A stretch of DNA of 64,000 nucleotides from Octopus vulgaris (taxonomy: Eukaryota): positions 100,254,001 through 100,318,000 of the forward strand of contig OX597822.1 of the NCBI GenBank assembly GCA_951406725.2, in the 5' to 3' direction. Made by a program: the position numbers and the translations under genes. Of this stretch, positions 6,667 to 63,852 are shown piece after piece. Each line of letters opens with the position of its first letter. Positions within the stretch are counted from its first letter, which is position 1. Below the pieces are notes generated by a model that saw only the letters and a list, made by a program, of their open reading frames with translations, had not been told where the DNA came from and ran no database searches.

Positions 6667-6887
6667 CCCTTTAGTGTTTGCATTATTCTGCCAAAATTAA
6701 TCCTTTTTTATCCACATTGCCTTGAACTAATCAGGCATTATCTTGGTGCTATGAGATTTTCATGAGGTAGCTGTTAATTTTTAAAACGATATTGTGGGGC
6801 TGGTGTGAGAGACCAGATCTGGCCAGTTTAAACATAAAACAGGCAGAATACTTTTGGCCGGATATGGCCGGTTTAAATGCTAAAGGG
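6667..6887. mobile_element. piggyBac-type MITE family B (221 bp), inverted relative to 6086 copy
   Basis: TTAA-CCCTTTAGTGTTT...AAATGCTAAAGGG-TTAA. Confidence 0.85.
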
Positions 6888-7595
6888 TTAATACAATCTT
6901 CTGCTTTTATAGTTTCTAATTGATTTCAGTTGTGCATATTCTTAACACTGGTTAATGGTTTAGCTTCACTGTTGGTTTGGATTAGTGGATGAGCATCTTC
7001 TATAAATTTTGATGCCTATACTTTATCTTGAAGTTTTATTTTTTCTGTATATCTATACTTCACAAAAAGAAAATAATTTTGTCTTTTGCTGTTCATATTT
7101 TAAAAAACCTGTTTGCTGTTCTCTACTTGATTGATGCAAATACAAATATATTAAACCTAAATATGACATCTTGCAGCTGTTGATGAGATTAACTTTATTT
7201 CTCATTGTTTTTGTTAGATTTTTCACGTTACCATGAGAACAGTTTGTGCAAATTTTCACATTTGCTTGCTTGTTTCTTTCTATTTTTCATATTTTTATAT
7301 CACAGAATTGGTCAATAGTAGTATCATTGGTTATAGGTTTCTAATGGATCAATCTCAGATTCCACACGTTTGTAGTTTGATGCAGAACAAACGCCTGAAG
7401 ACTTTGTTTGTAACACACTGGTTTCTCAGTTTTCTCAACAGTTTATATCCTTCGGAGGAACACACTCTACACACGCAAATAAATGGCTTCTACACTATAT
7501 CAGATTCCACTCACCTAATATTAATGAAGCTGAGGCTGCCACGTATTAAGATTGAAACTAGAACTACATGGTTGTGAAGCACTCAAACAGCTATA

Positions 7596-30890: not shown

Positions 30891-31491
30891 TTAACTTAAA
30901 ACAATTCAAGTAAAATATTTAATCCTTTAATATTTGAAACGGCCATATCTGGCCCAAATATTCTGTTTTATATTCATATCAGTCAAATCCAGCCTCTCAC
31001 ATTTACCCTACAGTGTCATTCTGAACATAAACAATCTCATCATGGAGATCTCAAGAGCTATGAGATAATGCATAATTAATTCAAAACAATGTGAATAAAT
31101 AAATATTAAATTTGACAGAGTAATCATAGTGTTAATTATAGCCATCCACTGTTTTTCTCTCTTGTTTGCAAAGTATGATTCGAACACGGAATGTTCTTTG
31201 AACAATTAATTAAAACACTGACTGTTAATTACCAATATACAAAACCAGCCAAGTATGAAGATTAATAGATTCAGTATGCAGTATATTTGTGTTAAAAACA
31301 TTATTGCTGGGAAATGAAACCCTTCAAGTTGTTGCTAGTATGGCTAATAGATATTGAACCTCCTGTGGCAGTAAGGAACATTTTTAGACTCTCATCAATA
31401 TTCCTTTAACCCTGGTTTCTATGATACTAAGAAGAAACAAATGTTGTTTTTTTTTTTCGTATTTTATTAATTTCTTAATTTCTTAATTTTG

Positions 31492-36733: not shown

Positions 36734-38400
36734 AATGTTGCATATAAGGCTTGGCATTTATTTTATCACAAATTGGCTTCAACTTTTGCTTGAATTAAAA
36801 TAGTATTCAATTGGTTGAAGATTAATCAAAATAATCAACTAATTACCAGTAAAAGAAGAGCAGTCACTCAGTCAAGATAAATCATTACTATAGTATCTAG
36901 GTAGCAGTTATTGTCGTTAACCATGGCTGTGGGGCTTCATTAAGGTGCTGGGCGCATTGTCACATGACTTAGATTTGATTACTTTCATTGGGTTGTGCTC
37001 TGAAGTAAGATACTTAACTCTCTTAGCTCCAATTTACTTGACTTTGAGGAAAAATAGGTTCCACTTCTTCTTCATGATTGACTGCCTAGCAGTAGGACAA
37101 ATATTAAGTTGTAAAGTGAACTAATCACCCCAACAAATATATCTTCCCACACATATAGTTGGGGGTAGGGTGGGGAGTTAAAATGGATGAAAAACCTTAA
37201 AAGGAAAGAAAATATTTTAAAATGAAGCTTAGAAGAAGAAAAAAGGTAACTCTAAGTTTACTGATGATTTGGGTTGGACTTTTGCATAGAATGTATGATA
37301 AAAGGACAACTTAGTGTACACAATTGAAATGACCATCTGTGTATTGTACTTTACAGACACTGTTGAAAGGCATGGTGCTGTAGTTTATGTCTGAGATAAA
37401 ATCTCTCATAGACATGAGATGTTATAAACACAATATATTTTTGAGCAAGACAAAACGAAATCAACCCAGCAGTGATTTATGTGAATGTTAGATACATTTC
37501 AACCTTTTTAGGCTATGTCAATAACATATATTTGCAGCGATATGCATAAATGAAATTTTTCACCTCCATTTTATAGGAAACTGTGAATAATACTTTTACT
37601 GATATAGTGAATAGCTGCCCAGGCTGCATAAAAAGTCAGTGAATGCAATTGAAAGAGCTTTCAATTAAAATAGCCATCTGTGTATCATACTTAACACAAG
37701 CCACAGCATCAGGCCTTTCGTTTGATGTATAAATGTTAAGTATGACACTTTGATAGCTGTTTTATTTAAAGGAAGTTGTCGTTTGATCCCTTCCAGGTAA
37801 GCTCTAATGAACTAGACCCAAAATCAAGTATTTTAGCTATCATTGTTCAGCTACAACACTTGGTTGTCTTTATTTTTGTATTCTCCAAGGTGGTGAGCTG
37901 GCAGAATCATTAGCACGGTGGACAAAAAGCTTAGAGGCATTTCATCCATCTTTATGTACAGAGTTCAAATTCTGTCAGGGTTGACTTTCTCTTATATCAT
38001 TTTAGGGATCTGAAATAATCACCAATTCTGCACTGGGGGTTGATGTAATCAACTAGCCACTCTCCTAAAATCTCAGACCTTGTGCCTACAATAGAAGGGA
38101 TAATTTTTGTCCTCTCCTTCAGACAGTCTATTGTGGGCTGCATTAACCAGTGTGTCTTTACTTTTGTTTTTTATTTCAGATGGTAGCACTATTTGAGTGA
38201 GACTTCGCTGCTATTTCAGTTGGATTGGGTGACTACTTAGAGGATTTTTTGTTGGTTTGGTTGAGGGAGGTTAGATTTAATTGGTGCATCATGAGAAATT
38301 TCATTTATTTTAAGCATTAGAACAATTTTAGATGTTTTTTTTTTTTGCCTTAATCCTGCTGCTTAATCATCTTCATTACATTTCTCTTTCTTTCTCTCAG

Positions 38401-45220: not shown

Positions 45221-46069
45221 CAGGGTGCAATGGGTAAATTGTTGCCATTTTATATTTTTAATTTTACGCATTGTTTTTGATTTTGTCGACTACACAGTAT
45301 AGTAGGGTCAGTTGGGCACCGTCTGTGAGGAAAAAAGCACCATGATGCAATTCATTCTACCAGAAATTTGGAAATGACATGTTATACTGCTTGGCATTTG
45401 TGTCAGAAGCTTCAATACGAACATTTCAGAGTGTTTGGGTGTTAGTCTGAGGACATGTACCACGAGTGATAAAAATCAAACATCCAGCCAACATAATGGT
45501 GTTTGGAGTGGTTACTAGCAATGGCAATGTTATACTTCCATTCATCTTCCCACAGGACCTCAGACTCAACACAGAGGCCTACATCAAGTGCCTGGCAGTG
45601 GTAATGTTGCCCTGGATCAAGAGGTTGGCTGCTGGAAAATCTTATGTTTGGCAACAGGATTCTGTGCTATGCCACACAAGTAGAACCCAGTCATGGCTGT
45701 CAGACAATTTCTGTGACCACATCACCCCTAACATCTGGCCACCTAACTCCCCAGACTGCAACCCCCTTGATTATTATGTGTGGGCACAGTTGAGTGAGAG
45801 ACCAGCAAAACTTGTAACACCAACGATGAACTGCTGGCAAGGATTATGGCAGCATTGACCAACATAAAGAAGGAGACCATCCAGAAGAGTTGCAGGAGAT
45901 TCTGATGTCATCTAGAGGCCATGGTTGAAGCCAATTTTATTGAATAAATTTACTCTTAGTATTTCAAGATATTTTTATATAATTTTGGTAAATATACCTG
46001 TTAAAATGAGATGTCAGTGTTATTTTCATTTTTGCATAATTTAGATGACAGTTTATTCACCGCACTCTG
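45221..46069 (+). mobile_element. maT/DD37D-like transposon remnant nested in a SINE (CA)n tract
   Basis: TIR CAGGGTGC...GCACTCTG, TA TSD; WQQD...WPPNSPDCNPLDYYVW. Confidence 0.9.
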
Positions 46070-58441: not shown

Positions 58442-59318
58442 TTGGGTCATCCTGTAAATAATGCAGTTTTTTTTATACTTTGATTTTTCAAATTTAAGAT
58501 AAACGAATTTCTTTTTTAATCAAAAATATACTCATCTTCATTTTCTACAATGCTCTTCCATCTATTTGGTAGACTTACAAGGTCCCTCTTCCAAAATTCA
58601 CTTGTCCATGATGAAAAATACTCCTCCAGTATTGTTCTGACCTCTTCTACAGAATTCATTTTTTTTTTGTCTAAATGATTTTGAAGACTGCAGAATAAAT
58701 GAATAATCCAGCGAATATGGTGGGTGATGCATCGTTTCCCATTCAAACTGCTCCAGCCTTTGGAATGTCATCCTCACTGTATATAGCCAAGTATTATCCT
58801 GATGGAAGAACACCTTTCATCTTGAAACCAAAAATGGTCGTTTTTCTTCTAGCGTTGACTAGAATGACTGATTGAATGATCAAATCCAAGCTTCTCTGTT
58901 AGTTCCTCAACAGTTATGATGGAATTTTGTTCCACAAGGGTTTGTAGGACATCCTCGTCAAGCTCTATAGGTGTTCCAGGATGAAGCTTGTCTTCTAGGC
59001 TGTAGTTTCCAGCTTGGAATTTCTGGAACCACTGTTGACACTGGCTTACACTTATCCAGTCCCCATATATTGTATTGATATTCCTTGCACTATCTTTTGT
59101 GTTGTAGCCTTTATTCAACTCGTAAAGTAAAATATGCTGAATATGCTCCTTTGTCACTTCCATTATAGCTTTGAAAAACTGTTAAAATCGAACTGCACTC
59201 TTCAAAACTTGCACTAAGAATAAGGACAAGGTATAATTACTACCTGCTTTTATAGCAAGTTGATGCAGGTAGTTTATCCTGTCCCTCTCCGATTTTTAGT
59301 TCATGCAATTGAAAAAAC
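58442..59318 (-). mobile_element. Degenerate mariner element
   Basis: N-terminal HTH (EHIQHILLYELNKG...), FHQDN and HHPPYS motifs across frameshifts; one TIR-like end at 58442. Confidence 0.88.
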
Positions 59319-59712
59319 AATGTACATATATTGCATATGGAGCAGAACCCATTTTGTCACTCTTTCAAATAGTTATGTGCTTTTTTTTTTTCATACAATA
59401 GCTATTGTGAGATACCGATAGAATAAGTACTAGGCTTACAAAGAGTAAGTCCTGGGGTCGATTTGCTCGACTAAAGGCAGTGCTCCAGCATGGCCACAGT
59501 CAAATGACTGAAACAAGTAAAAGAGTAAAAGAGATACATGGAAACAAACAGGTGAGGATTGGTAACAAGAAGAGCATTTTCAGCTGTAGGGAACCCTGCT
59601 TCAGCTATGTTGTATTTGACCCATGCAGGCGTGGAAAAGTTTTGTTAAAGCATTGATAATGATAAAGAGGAATTTTTTTTTACTAACTTTATTTTACTTT
59701 TACTTCTTTCAG

Positions 59713-59810
59713 GCTTCCAAATCGTTGAGGGGTCTCCAAGTTGTCATCATTTCTGTAATCATACTCACCTCAGCAGCCAAAGATCTTTCTTCATGTCTCT
59801 TAAGCGAGAG
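59713..59810 (+). CDS. UBE2O: UBE2O exon M (GFQIVEGSPSCHHF...FFMSLKRE), phase 1-0
   Basis: Resembles F...P..H.F...FFSTVRKE preceding the UBC domain; ctttcag/gttagt. Confidence 0.92.
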
Positions 59811-59994
59811 GTTAGTTTGTGATTTGTCTATGTTGGGAGCTGTAATTCTTATGATAGGAGCTTCTGAAGAACTCAAGGTTGAAGTCTCTAGAACTTTTTG
59901 AGTTTTTAATTATCTTGTCATAAAACAAAATCAAATTTCAAAATAATAATTGTAAATTCTGAGTTGATGTTAATTCTGATGTACATTTTATTAA

Positions 59995-60209
59995 CCCTTT
60001 TGCATTCACATTACTCTGTCAAACACAATGCTTTTTTATTCACATTGTTTTAAATTAATCATGCATCACCTTGTAATTTCAAGATTTCAATGATGTGATT
60101 GTATGTGTTTTGAATGTCATTGTAAAGGAAACGTGATACATCAGATCTGCCCAGTTCGAATATAAAACAATATTTATGCCGGATATGGTTGGTTCAAATG
60201 GTCAAGGAG
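59995..60209. mobile_element. piggyBac-type MITE family B, decayed
   Basis: Homologous to 6667-6887; another decayed copy near 30920-31125. Confidence 0.72.
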
Positions 60210-60259
60210 TTAGTAATTTGGTATTGGTATTAATGACGTAGTTACATATTACAAAGAAT

Positions 60260-60525
60260 CTTAACACATTAGTCTAGACAGGTATCTTCAGCTAGCAGGC
60301 CTTGCTACTCCAGACTGATGATGAGCAAATACTCAGAAACATGTCTCTAGATGCAGGCTTAGCTGTTGGGGGTGCTTGTCTCCCCTTCGCAAATATAAGG
60401 ACACAGGAAATGTGTCAAAGCCGACAGGAAGCGTCGATGCTTCCTAGGGCTAAATAGCGGTGGTGTGATTCCCTTTACGGGACTGTCACGTTAAGTTGAC
60501 AGTATACAACTGCTCTATTGCTCCA
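60260..60525 (+). mobile_element. Retrozyme-like structured element, copy 1
   Basis: Hammerhead followed by a series of hairpins; homologous to 63067-63334 on the - strand. Confidence 0.7.
60289..60365 (+). ncRNA. Type I hammerhead ribozyme, canonical core, predicted cleavage after C60345 (GUC)
   Basis: TCCAGA-CTGATGA-TGAG caaata CTCA-GAAA-CATG-TC-TCTAGA; stem I extends past a TAC bulge (CTTGC/GCAGG, CAGCTA/TAGCTG). Confidence 0.88.
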
Positions 60526-61810
60526 CCATTGCTCATATCTCTCTGAGATATTTAGAAATTTAAAGTTCCTAGTCATTCTACCATTAAGTGTGGATAAGGT
60601 GAATATGTAACACACATTGTGCTTGATAGAGGTAAGTCTGCTTAGTGAACTGGTGCTTACTAAGTGCTGAGTGTAGTAATCTCAGTCACTTATACGTCAT
60701 GCAACCTGGATTAAGCCCTTGGATTCACGACAGACATAAGTAAACAGAGAATTGGTTAACTTGCTAGAAATAGCTGCCAAGTCTCTTTCAAATTGCATTG
60801 TACCATTTTAAATAAAAGGAGGCCACATTGGGTTATGCAATCTTAAGGATATTCTAAAATGTAGGAATGGGAGGAATTACAACCGTGTTTCGTGGTCTGC
60901 TATCACAACAGCTCCTTTATAGGATCCAGTTAGCTCAAGACATCATCTGGAGGAACCACGTCCGGTTTTGGCCCTACTCCTCTACCGTTTTGATGTTGCG
61001 CCCCACCTCCCTTTCGGAGGTGTCTTCAGCTCTGGTGTTGGGTGCATGTCTTCTTTCTTCTGTTCCCTGGCCTCTTCGATGTATGGTCAGCGAGTGTCAG
61101 CCGGTGACTGACTGTCTTGTCAAATTTTTTTTCCCCTTTATAACAGGGATTTTCTGATCAGAAGTCTCTGCTCTATCAGGGTTAGCCTTGGGCTGAACAA
61201 CAACAGCACAATACATATTTAAGTCTTCTATTTAGAAATCAATGGAAGTGTATAAAAATAATAATTATCCGTATGAGAATACATTGCCATTATATGCAAA
61301 TAGCTTTGTACATTGTGCTAAATTTAACTCACAGACATGTATTGAATTATATAATGCTCATTCATATAGCTATATGCAGCAGCACTATACATATTTGACA
61401 GTTCCATTTTTTAATTTTTTTAAATAAATAAAACTACTGGCAGGGAAAAAGTGTATTGTGTTGTGGACTGTACTTGGTAGATTATTTAGATTGAGTCATT
61501 TTATTTGTGTGGAAGGCTGGAAGAATTAAGTATTCCCTGTGCATTTTAGTATTGGCTGACACCCTACTAATATACTTGGCACTATGTCTCCTCCTTTCTG
61601 CGTTTTTTTTAATCTCCTTGATATACCTTTTTCTGATATCTGAAGAGAAACAGCAATTTTAGCAGAACGTATTAAGCAACAGTAATATAAAATTAAAAAA
61701 CAAAAATAAACAATCTTTTGAAGGTTTTATAGATATTTCAAAAGTATGATGCTATTATGCTAGATGTTTCCATTATTTCGTCCAATCCCTCTATACACAC
61801 ACACACACAC

Positions 61811-61845
<35 letters not shown>

Positions 61846-61849
61846 TACA

Positions 61850-61885
<36 letters not shown>

Positions 61886-61889
61886 TATA

Positions 61890-62148
61890 CCGGAGTAAAT
61901 ACATAAATGTGAAACAAGGTGGAAAAAAGAGTACTCAAATACCAGTGGTAGAGTAATATGCTTTATTTAAAGCAGCAGAAAATTCAACAAAACCTGTTAC
62001 TCTGAGTTTGCCGGTCGTCGGACAGTTTTTGCTAAAAAAAAAAAAAAAAAAAAAAAAAAACAGTTTTCTAGCAAAAACTGTCCGACGAACGGCAACGGGA
62101 AACTCAGAGTAACAGGTTTTGTTGAATTTTCTGCTGCTTTAAATAAAG
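61890..62148. mobile_element. Penelope-like element end with inverted duplication (arms 61961-62034 and 62069-62148, poly-A loop)
   Basis: About 75-bp near-perfect inverted repeat carrying the hammerhead motif, inserted in a TA/CA microsatellite. Confidence 0.65.
62073..62120 (+). ncRNA. Variant type I hammerhead motif in a Penelope-like palindrome
   Basis: AAAAACTGT-CCGACGA-ACG gcaa CGG-GAAA-CTCAGAG-TA-ACAGGTTTT. Confidence 0.62.
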
Positions 62149-62349
62149 TAAATATATATATACACACACATACATATACACACATACATTATTTCTTATT
62201 AAATGATAAATATATGCATGTATTTTATTCAATATTTTAAATTTATTTCACATAACTATGAAACTGAATATGTATTGCCTGACTACCCACTTGAACATAA
62301 TTCATCTTTTTGTTTGGTAATTTTATTTTCATTTTCATTGTCTTTTTAG

Positions 62350-62412
62350 TCAAAGTTATTAAAAACTAGTCTTCCTGATGGTATTTTTGTTAAAGAATTT
62401 GAAGAGAGAATG
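62350..62412 (+). CDS. UBE2O: UBE2O exon N (SKLLKTSLPDGIFVKEFEERM), phase 0-0
   Basis: 63 nt; resembles LLATSLPEGIMVKTFEDRM; tttttag/gtatgt. Confidence 0.94.
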
Positions 62413-63066: not shown

Positions 63067-63364
63067 CAACAGAGTGGATTTTGATATGTTGTCAACTTTA
63101 TGTGACAGTCCTATGAAAGGGAAGAATGTTACTGTTATATTTAGCCCAAGGAAACACCGTTTCCTGTTGGACTTGACATATTTCCTGTGTCCTTATGTTT
63201 TCAAAGTGGAGACAAGCACCTCCACCCAGCAAAGCCAGCATCCAGAGACTAGTTTCATAGTCACTGCTCATCATCAGTCTGGAGTAGAATGGATTTTGAT
63301 AAAAGTAACCAAGATGCCAGGTCATGGTGTTAAGTCAGGTCACTCATTAAGTCTACCAGTGAAG
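63067..63364 (-). mobile_element. Retrozyme-like structured element, copy 2
   Basis: Shares GGTGCTTGTCTCC, ATAAGGACACAGGAAAT, GGGCTAAATA and GGACTGTCAC..AAGTTGACA with copy 1. Confidence 0.7.
63241..63283 (-). ncRNA. Type I hammerhead ribozyme, same family as 60289 (weakened stem II)
   Basis: Reverse complement: TCCAGA-CTGATGA-TGAG cagtga CTAT-GAAA-CTAG-TC-TCTGGA. Confidence 0.8.
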
Positions 63365-63648: not shown

Positions 63649-63852
63649 GACTTATTCTCAGTGATGATAGTTGGGCCTTCAAATACGCCCTATGAAGATG
63701 GTCTATTTATTTTCGATGTCCAGTTGCCAAATGATTACCCTGCATCACCACCCAGGTTCCATTATTTGTCCTACTGTGCTGATCGACTCAACCCTAATCT
63801 TTATGAAGATGGTAAAGTCTGTGTAAGCTTATTGGGTACTTGGTCTGGCAAG
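63649..63852 (+). CDS. UBE2O: UBE2O exon O, UBC catalytic core (active-site Cys codon TGT at 63820-63822)
   Basis: [20 protein letters not shown]...[23 protein letters not shown]; NPN in place of HPN as in UBE2O/BIRC6/UBE2Z. Confidence 0.97.

Follow-up and report, generated by a model that had tools for sequence, protein, structure and literature searches.

The UBE2O locus and its intronic hammerhead motif

The analysed stretch of Octopus vulgaris DNA, 64,000 nt long and here called the window, carries exons of UBE2O on its plus strand, and one intron of this gene holds a type I hammerhead motif in the sense orientation (Table 1). That the host is a UBE2O intron read in this sense, as the preliminary description had proposed, is confirmed by protein matches, by PDB matches and by exons that tblastn of protein P0002 places co-linearly on the plus strand. 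A predicted O. vulgaris UBC-domain protein matches the long upstream exon with 100% identity, and a UBE2O-like protein of Argonauta does so with 62%; the best PDB matches of the UBC exon are the (E3-independent) E2 enzyme UBE2O (E = 2e-31). Spliced contigs span 59712-59810 without a difference in three of the four sequencing runs that we guessed to be RNA, and this exact coverage of the upstream exon makes it likely that transcription of the intron runs in the ribozyme sense. The predicted cut would fall 535 nt downstream of its 5' splice site.

Table 1. Features of the UBE2O locus and of the hammerhead motif (positions in the window)
Feature	Position	Strand	Basis
UBE2O exon 5' of the hammerhead intron	59713..59810	+	Spliced contigs; tblastn of P0002
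Host intron, GT..AG, 2,539 nt	59811..62349	+	Splice dinucleotides; tblastn
Putative retrozyme copy, 5'-truncated and sub-monomeric, ~300 of ~352 nt	60271..60571	+	BLAST of flanks against 29 genomic copies
Type I hammerhead with extended and bulged helix I	60289..60365	+	Sequence; family covariation; sister-family model
Outer helices CUUGC/GCAGG and CAGCUA/UAGCUG		+	Sequence
UAC bulge	60306-60308	+	Sequence
Core unit	60309..60351	+	Sequence; family states
Helix I, UCCAGA/UCUAGA, mismatch C60311·A60349	60309-60314/60346-60351	+	Sequence
Core CUGAUGA	60315-60321	+	Sequence
Helix II, UGAG/CUCA, pair 10.1-11.1 = U-A	60322-60325/60332-60335	+	Sequence
Loop II, CAAAUA	60326-60331	+	Sequence
Core GAAA	60336-60339	+	Sequence
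Helix III palindrome ACAUGU; C17 at 60345, predicted cut after C60345	60339-60344	+	Sequence
Optional 3' tail, ~55 nt	60518..60571	+	Family copies stop just before the tail or at its end
UBE2O exon (SKLLKTSLPDGIFVKEFEERM)	62350..62412	+	Translation; splice dinucleotides; tblastn
Second, older family copy, in the next UBE2O intron	63069..63295	-	BLAST, 78.6% identity over 201 nt
UBE2O UBC-domain exon	63649..63852	+	Pfam UQ_con, E = 4e-18

The introns of UBE2O hold a variety of other repeated sequence. Three further repeats lie in the same introns: at 59410-59532 a SINE-like end that resembles an octopus SINE, at 59990-60215 an AT-rich repeat of high copy number that recurs in related form at 6805-6893 and 30912-31033, and at 61971-62120 an element whose inverted repeats enclose a poly(A) run. 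Broken Tc1/mariner-like transposase pieces at 45451-45858 (plus strand) and 58516-59181 (minus strand) were recognized by eye in the translations.

When 60289-60365 was re-read, every element that the preliminary description had listed was found in its place, and the assignment to the metazoan kind of type I hammerhead with a palindromic helix III is borne out by the core bases and by covariation within the family described below. The UBE2O-intron copy has all of the bases C3-U4-G5-A6-N7-G8-A9, G12-A13-A14, A15.1-U16.1 and H17, and an arrangement of three helices with an open helix I is supported by covariation at the family level. The motif exceeds chance: a strict, helix-aware descriptor matches once in the two strands of the 64 kb. 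Taken by itself, the loose core pattern lacks significance: it matches 7 times where 4.3 are expected, and 23 of 100 shuffles reach 7 or more.

We further scored the motif with a covariance model made from 14 hammerheads of three sister families of the same genome, excluding the window's own family. The UBE2O-intron copy obtained 46.7 bits (E of about 1e-14, by a rough calibration), a score in which only the helices are an independent test, since 12 of the 14 training rows (families D and E) had been chosen by a core and loop pattern derived from the window motif itself; the two rows from family C were chance finds in fetched loci. The best unrelated site in the window reached 17.3 bits, and 29 neighbour loci ranged from 25.2 to 53.5 bits, so that the UBE2O-intron copy stands mid-to-high among them. 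The segment at 37479-37533 of the minus strand, with 17.3 bits, has the core UUGACAU and 25% GC and is probably a chance match. The Rfam scan that had been proposed as a check was negative, with no hammerhead match in Rfam 15 at the gathering score, nor at E values as high as 10 when 3 kb and 111 nt were searched; it is equally blind to the hammerheads in six of six related loci, and the blank therefore weighs little for octopus families. The microRNA matches in Rfam proved to be microsatellites.

The motif lies in a solo copy of a dispersed repeat

The hammerhead belongs to a repeat of which the genome holds many copies. The exact core pattern has 369 matches in the genome (control, 0), and a 131-nt query yielded 2,063 first-look candidates; among the 40 of these that were scored, 39 are other full-length matches, 89 to 94% identical and spread over many contigs. 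An 18-nt 3' motif common to this family and one sister family matches 1,690 times. In natural tandems, which comprise dimers of 350 and 352 nt and a trimer of 355/354 nt (loci L031, L063 and L032), the unit measures 350 to 355 nt with 41% GC. One core is damaged in L063 and one in L032, the trimer's being its middle core. Only two pairs of exact cores lie at unit distance, compared with 369 cores, and because these and the one trimer are all, most copies of the family are solo. The sequence 5' of the hammerhead in other copies continues the sequence at the 3' end. No open reading frame of at least 220 amino acids lies inside the unit, among the frames listed for 70 loci. The share of intact cores is biased upward in this sample, in which L031-L070 were chosen by the exact core pattern and L002-L030 for their similarity to the window copy; a truncated copy at the edge of L018 (alignment A1) was excluded, as were L001 and L071, which are duplicates.

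The UBE2O-intron copy is a solo fragment with one hammerhead. Its 3' end is well defined as far as 60564 and becomes ragged from there to 60571, corresponding to +257 from C3, and its nearest relative is 95.5% identical, with a median of 88.6% over 79 hits. Tandem Repeats Finder reported no array at the hammerhead site, no microsatellite, inverted piece or target duplication was found at the copy, and the plus strand between 55,000 and 64,000 holds no other intact family core. The antisense copy in the next intron has a broken helix II (UGAG/CUAU) and scores 28.3 bits with the sister-family model. A search of a phage collection gave no match.

Because the hammerhead belongs to a mobile family with at least 369 core-exact copies, its presence in UBE2O is most simply explained by insertion. 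An empty-site allele, that is, a joint across 60270/60572, did not appear among the joints listed. One contig under another species label bridges the 3' junction (60534-60898, with 12 differences in 365 nt and 31 to 38 nt lying within the element), which is a weak sign that the insertion is shared between species and probably not brand new.

The family maintains the fold but varies the core

Comparison of natural copies shows that the family has maintained the hammerhead through covariation. Over 69 copies, 92.0% of the cells of the hammerhead structure are paired, with 16 double changes against 3.6 in shuffled alignments (0 of 500 shuffles), a control that the relatedness of the sequences inflates. 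Structures slid along the alignment leave 18 to 45% of cells paired; slides by +1 and -1 gave 3 and 7 pairs with double changes, respectively, compared with 7 for the actual structure. Across the three sister families the covariation score is 0.53 versus 0.24, and each of the six helix I pairs has changed on its two sides.

To describe the natural variants, helix states were counted in 67 copies, leaving out 13 of 80 hits with a broken core (as defined by the pattern). Helix III is most often ACAUGU (26 copies), ACUAGU (21) or ACAUGCAUGU (6), and in 51 of 64 copies it forms a perfect palindrome. Loop II reads CAAGA or CAAAGA in 50 of the 67 and CAAAUA, the state of the UBE2O-intron copy, in five. 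Helix I is fully paired both as TCCAGA/TCTGGA (29/67) and as TCTAGA/TCTAGA (4/67); the mixed TCCAGA/TCTAGA occurs in a further 4/67. The swaps of one helix III palindrome for another lend natural support to the dimer model, and the dimer model for hammerheads with a palindromic helix III (PMC4209133) fits the octopus palindromes. Axolotl monomers cleaved by 6% and 22% in an hour and dimers much better (PMC7229834). Folded as a circle, a natural 350-nt unit reaches -121.4 kcal/mol (z = -7.3, 60 shuffles).

The most conspicuous variation concerns pair 10.1-11.1. Changes at this pair slow cleavage, and no rate measurement for a changed pair was found in the literature searched. In 24 copies picked by similarity the pair is C·A in 13, U-A in 10 and A·A in one, and a pattern left free at these places has 402 matches, of which the 100 listed include no G-C. 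G10.1-C11.1, which is highly conserved in canonical hammerheads (PMC4209133), is replaced by U-A in the UBE2O-intron copy. It is not universal, however, the axolotl HHR_Amex2 having U·U, and the lack of G-C, a trait of the family, need not be fatal. We lean towards the view that a C10.1·A11.1 core supports catalysis in tandem units. The presence of C·A, U-A and A-U at this pair may also explain why Rfam misses the octopus hammerheads.

Several sister families were observed in the course of the analysis. Family B (L121-L123 and L080:2749-3322, minus strand) forms tandems of 363 to 366 nt whose body is about 71% like that of the window family; its core is CCGAUGA (U4C) with A10.1-U11.1, and its pattern has 651 matches but also catches unrelated motifs. 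Family C (L080:2141-2537 and L046:1021-1343, both plus strand) exhibits a U3/A8 core covariation (UUGAAAA, UUGAUAA), a covariation already published for Schistosoma Penelope elements (PMC4209133), and has an AT-rich tail and a small hairpin in common with the window family. Family D (L101-L108) is a young, near-identical tandem of 351 nt with the palindromic helix III ACUGCAGU; it shares C10.1·A11.1 with the window family, has other inner helix II pairs and lacks blastn similarity to the window family unit. Family E (L109-L112) features A10.1-U11.1 and a longer helix III, ACCAG-G-CUGGU, which might fold within one molecule.

Predicted activity of the UBE2O-intron copy

The preliminary description had called the ribozyme apparently intact. 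This holds for the core bases, the loop and the bulge, all of which are kept, but not for the U10.1-A11.1 pair, the helix I mismatch and the predicted fold of the monomer, which is inactive: in the minimum-energy structure the core pairs with the helix III palindrome and the inner helix I is absent. The pair probability of the inner helix I is 0.00 in the UBE2O-intron copy, compared with 0.89 to 0.97 in the best-folding copies; it exceeds 0.5 in 18 of 64 other copies and is at or below 0.5 in the remaining 46, all values from ViennaRNA, which leaves out tertiary contacts, Mg2+ and co-transcriptional folding and makes the folding argument a soft one. A dimer had been suggested as well. Helix III is indeed palindromic, but an intact partner core is missing between 55,000 and 64,000, and cofolding of two window segments gave inactive pairing and no double hammerhead; the helix III duplex alone contributes -4.6 kcal/mol. 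Elsewhere, the monomeric hammerhead of a coral retrozyme cleaves well, at about 0.8 per min (PMC7229834), and in one survey one of nine genomic retrozyme dimers cleaved (10.64898/2026.07.22.740005). Whether the UBE2O-intron copy would cleave measurably in vitro at high Mg2+ is, in our judgment, an even call.

Family sequence occurs in all four runs guessed to be RNA, and a head-to-tail joint of units in two of them; the same joint occurs in a run of unrecorded kind, and genomic tandems account for it. A drop in depth 5' of the cut site in the contigs guessed to be RNA was considered as a sign of cleavage and rejected, because the same profile appears in three large runs of unrecorded kind, which are probably DNA because they cover the intron at single-copy depth. 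The 3' part of the profile is inflated by sister families and by 5'-truncated copies.

The intronic CPEB3 ribozyme, which is of a different class, affects splicing or mRNA yield, and the same role has been proposed for the ultraconserved intronic hammerheads of amniotes. By analogy, the copy could have the same origin as its relatives and yet act efficiently as a monomer, cutting the UBE2O intron during transcription and altering splicing or mRNA yield. Its sense orientation, the full core, the CAAAUA loop and the UAC bulge would fit such a role, as would the decay of the nearby antisense copy next to a sense copy that is not decayed and, more faintly, the contig of another species label at the 3' junction, by which the insertion is probably not brand new. 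We nevertheless regard this as very unlikely. The same core is kept in hundreds of copies, so that an intact core requires no selection at the level of the host; the antisense copy is simply older (79% identity versus up to 95.5%); efficient cutting is disfavoured by the mismatch in helix I and by the misfold predicted for the monomer; and spliced contigs of the upstream exon exist. Nor did cut ends specific to the locus appear among the contigs, a kind of data that does not display such ends. The copy in UBE2O is likely a passenger and not a regulator of the gene.

Insertion footprints point to a probable role of Penelope enzymes

Measured from C3, the 3' ends of 78 core-covering hits fall mainly into two classes, 33 at +196 to +208 and 25 at +249 to +264, while two continue into the next unit and 18 lie elsewhere; the 5' ends are scattered. 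Two end points around an optional tail are a Penelope signature that has been linked to two start sites of the reverse transcriptase (PMC11167929). In addition, 22 of 69 loci have an inverted piece near the 5' end, and 27 of 69 have a microsatellite at the 3' end, compared with 8.7% of random windows; inverted 5' pieces and microsatellite targets are Penelope traits (PMC8557442). The family as a whole thus bears a tail, 5' truncation or inversion and a microsatellite bias, whereas the UBE2O-intron copy bears only the tail and the truncation. Endonuclease-bearing Penelope-like elements (Penelope/Poseidon and Neptune; PMC4209133, PMC8557442, PMC11167929) resemble the family in their 5' truncation and inverted 5' pieces, in a fixed 3' end that may bear a tail, in a hammerhead near that end and in their microsatellite targets. 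The family differs from them in that it has no ORF, a tail of about 55 nt instead of 30 to 40 and a canonical instead of a minimal hammerhead. A link between retrozymes and Penelope elements has already been proposed (10.64898/2026.07.22.740005).

These marks raise the question of whether the repeat is a solo pseudo-LTR (pLTR) of an autonomous Penelope-like element instead of a self-standing retrozyme. The tail, the 5' truncation, the inversions and the microsatellite targets are all Penelope marks (PMC8557442), and the retrozymes of Xenopus are related to pLTRs (10.64898/2026.07.22.740005). Against this, units occur head to tail without an ORF between them, and in 70 loci the element has no Penelope ORF of the same orientation next to it, save for an unrelated reverse transcriptase fragment in L043; nor was an ORF with a reverse transcriptase plus GIY-YIG found in the repeat or flanked by it in those loci. 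Moreover, the hammerhead of the repeat is canonical, with its loop II and long helix I, while those of metazoan pLTRs are minimal (PMC4209133), and an autonomous Penelope-like family of the octopus likewise carries a minimal hammerhead, unlike the repeat. We therefore consider a pLTR origin very unlikely and prefer a self-standing retrozyme.

The L043 fragment, which lies about 175 nt away from the retrozyme copy there, led to this autonomous family (L091-L097; G000:C10:97.80-97.82 Mb and others). It is a Penelope-like element of very recent age and high copy number, with open frames of 883 to 884 amino acids. Its tandem units lie about 6.2 kb apart and contain a long, CA-rich degenerate repeat, and a minimal hammerhead-like motif with the core CCGACGA lies upstream of the ORF. 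The match of the frame to RVT_1, at E = 1e-3, does not reach the Pfam cutoff; by eye, a cysteine linker and a GIY-YIG-like end would make the family Neptune-type. As a partner of the retrozyme it was rejected, blastn (word size 7, E <= 1) revealing no similarity to the unit beyond inserted retrozyme copies. Another minimal hammerhead-like motif, on the minus strand of L122, has CUGAUGA, an extra A and a 6-bp helix II and may be the pLTR of another Penelope family.

A probable non-LTR retrozyme family in an octopus

Taken together, the locus very probably holds a 5'-truncated solo copy of a non-LTR retrozyme, likely inserted by Penelope enzymes, with weak or no self-cleavage predicted at this site. 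Tandem transcripts of the family would be cleaved at one hammerhead after another, most readily when the palindromic helix III holds two of them together as a dimer, as the palindromes and the salamander data suggest, and the unit-length RNA would be ligated into a circle, in keeping with the much stronger predicted folding of the circular unit than of its shuffles. A Penelope reverse transcriptase/GIY-YIG endonuclease may then copy this RNA from one of two internal starts about 55 nt apart and insert it, often into microsatellites, leaving 5'-truncated and often 5'-inverted copies; the footprints of this last step are observed, while the enzyme is putative. Judging by its strand and by the spliced contigs, the UBE2O-intron copy would be transcribed passively in UBE2O pre-mRNA; having drifted, it would mostly be spliced out uncut. 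Because it has a single hammerhead, it would release no unit and represent a dead end.

The family compares closely with the non-LTR retrozymes of coral, mussel and axolotl (Cervera and de la Peña 2020, PMC7229834), which like the octopus unit of about 350 nt are non-coding and whose units measure 350 to 390 nt in mussel and 330/350 nt in axolotl. Both have less than 45% GC, one canonical type I hammerhead per unit, a weak palindromic helix III, tandem and solo copies and a strongly self-paired predicted circle. In terms of the features that define retrozymes, the octopus unit of 350 to 355 nt lies within the range of 170 to 400 nt for non-coding units with one type I hammerhead, and at the family level there are many dispersed copies and tandem hammerheads in consecutive units. 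The octopus family stands apart in that its tandems are rare and in having C·A or U-A at 10.1-11.1. As far as sequence can tell, it thus has the tested features of a metazoan non-LTR retrozyme, with putative catalysis and putative expression as circles. Two consecutive hammerheads have been taken as the hallmark of an active retrozyme (10.64898/2026.07.22.740005), which the solo UBE2O-intron copy lacks. The literature searched held no octopus or cephalopod retrozyme and no such 10.1-11.1 core variant, although the supplement of PMC7229834 may list cephalopods.

Two further hammerheads invite comparison at the level of the single copy. The Sm-alpha hammerhead of Schistosoma mansoni shares with the octopus copy the CAAAUA loop II, the UAC bulge in helix I and GUC at the cut; the octopus copy differs in having U10.1-A11.1 in place of G-C and in lacking an Rfam match. 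HH9 and HH10 of amniotes are type I hammerheads on the sense strand of introns, single-copy and deeply conserved. The octopus copy, in contrast, is one of hundreds of drifting copies, and its conservation is established within the family only.

It is tempting to speculate that solo intronic copies are half-ribozymes, silent on their own, that are cut in trans once free retrozyme RNA pairs with them through the palindromic helix III, and that they use for this a variant core without G10.1-C11.1; C·A at 10.1-11.1 does occur in two families with different inner helix II pairs. If so, retrozyme expression would act as a switch on host pre-mRNAs such as that of UBE2O, but we see this as a long shot. 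Almost certainly wrong is the notion of a chance likeness to a hammerhead or of a box C/D snoRNA fragment: it could appeal to the Rfam result without a hammerhead match and to weak C/D-box snoRNA matches of 8 to 16 bits, but these are far under the gathering scores (35 to 54) and rest on the hexamer UGAUGA, and covariation and retained palindromes across copies and families argue against chance.

The UBE2O locus, then, is a real hammerhead motif in an ordinary solo retrozyme copy. As a single locus it matters little, since solo intronic copies are common in animals; many metazoan retrozyme copies are intronic, 42 to 44% of them in Xenopus. At the level of the family, the finding extends non-LTR retrozymes to an octopus, and the insertion footprints add to the still unproven idea that Penelope enzymes move retrozyme RNAs.
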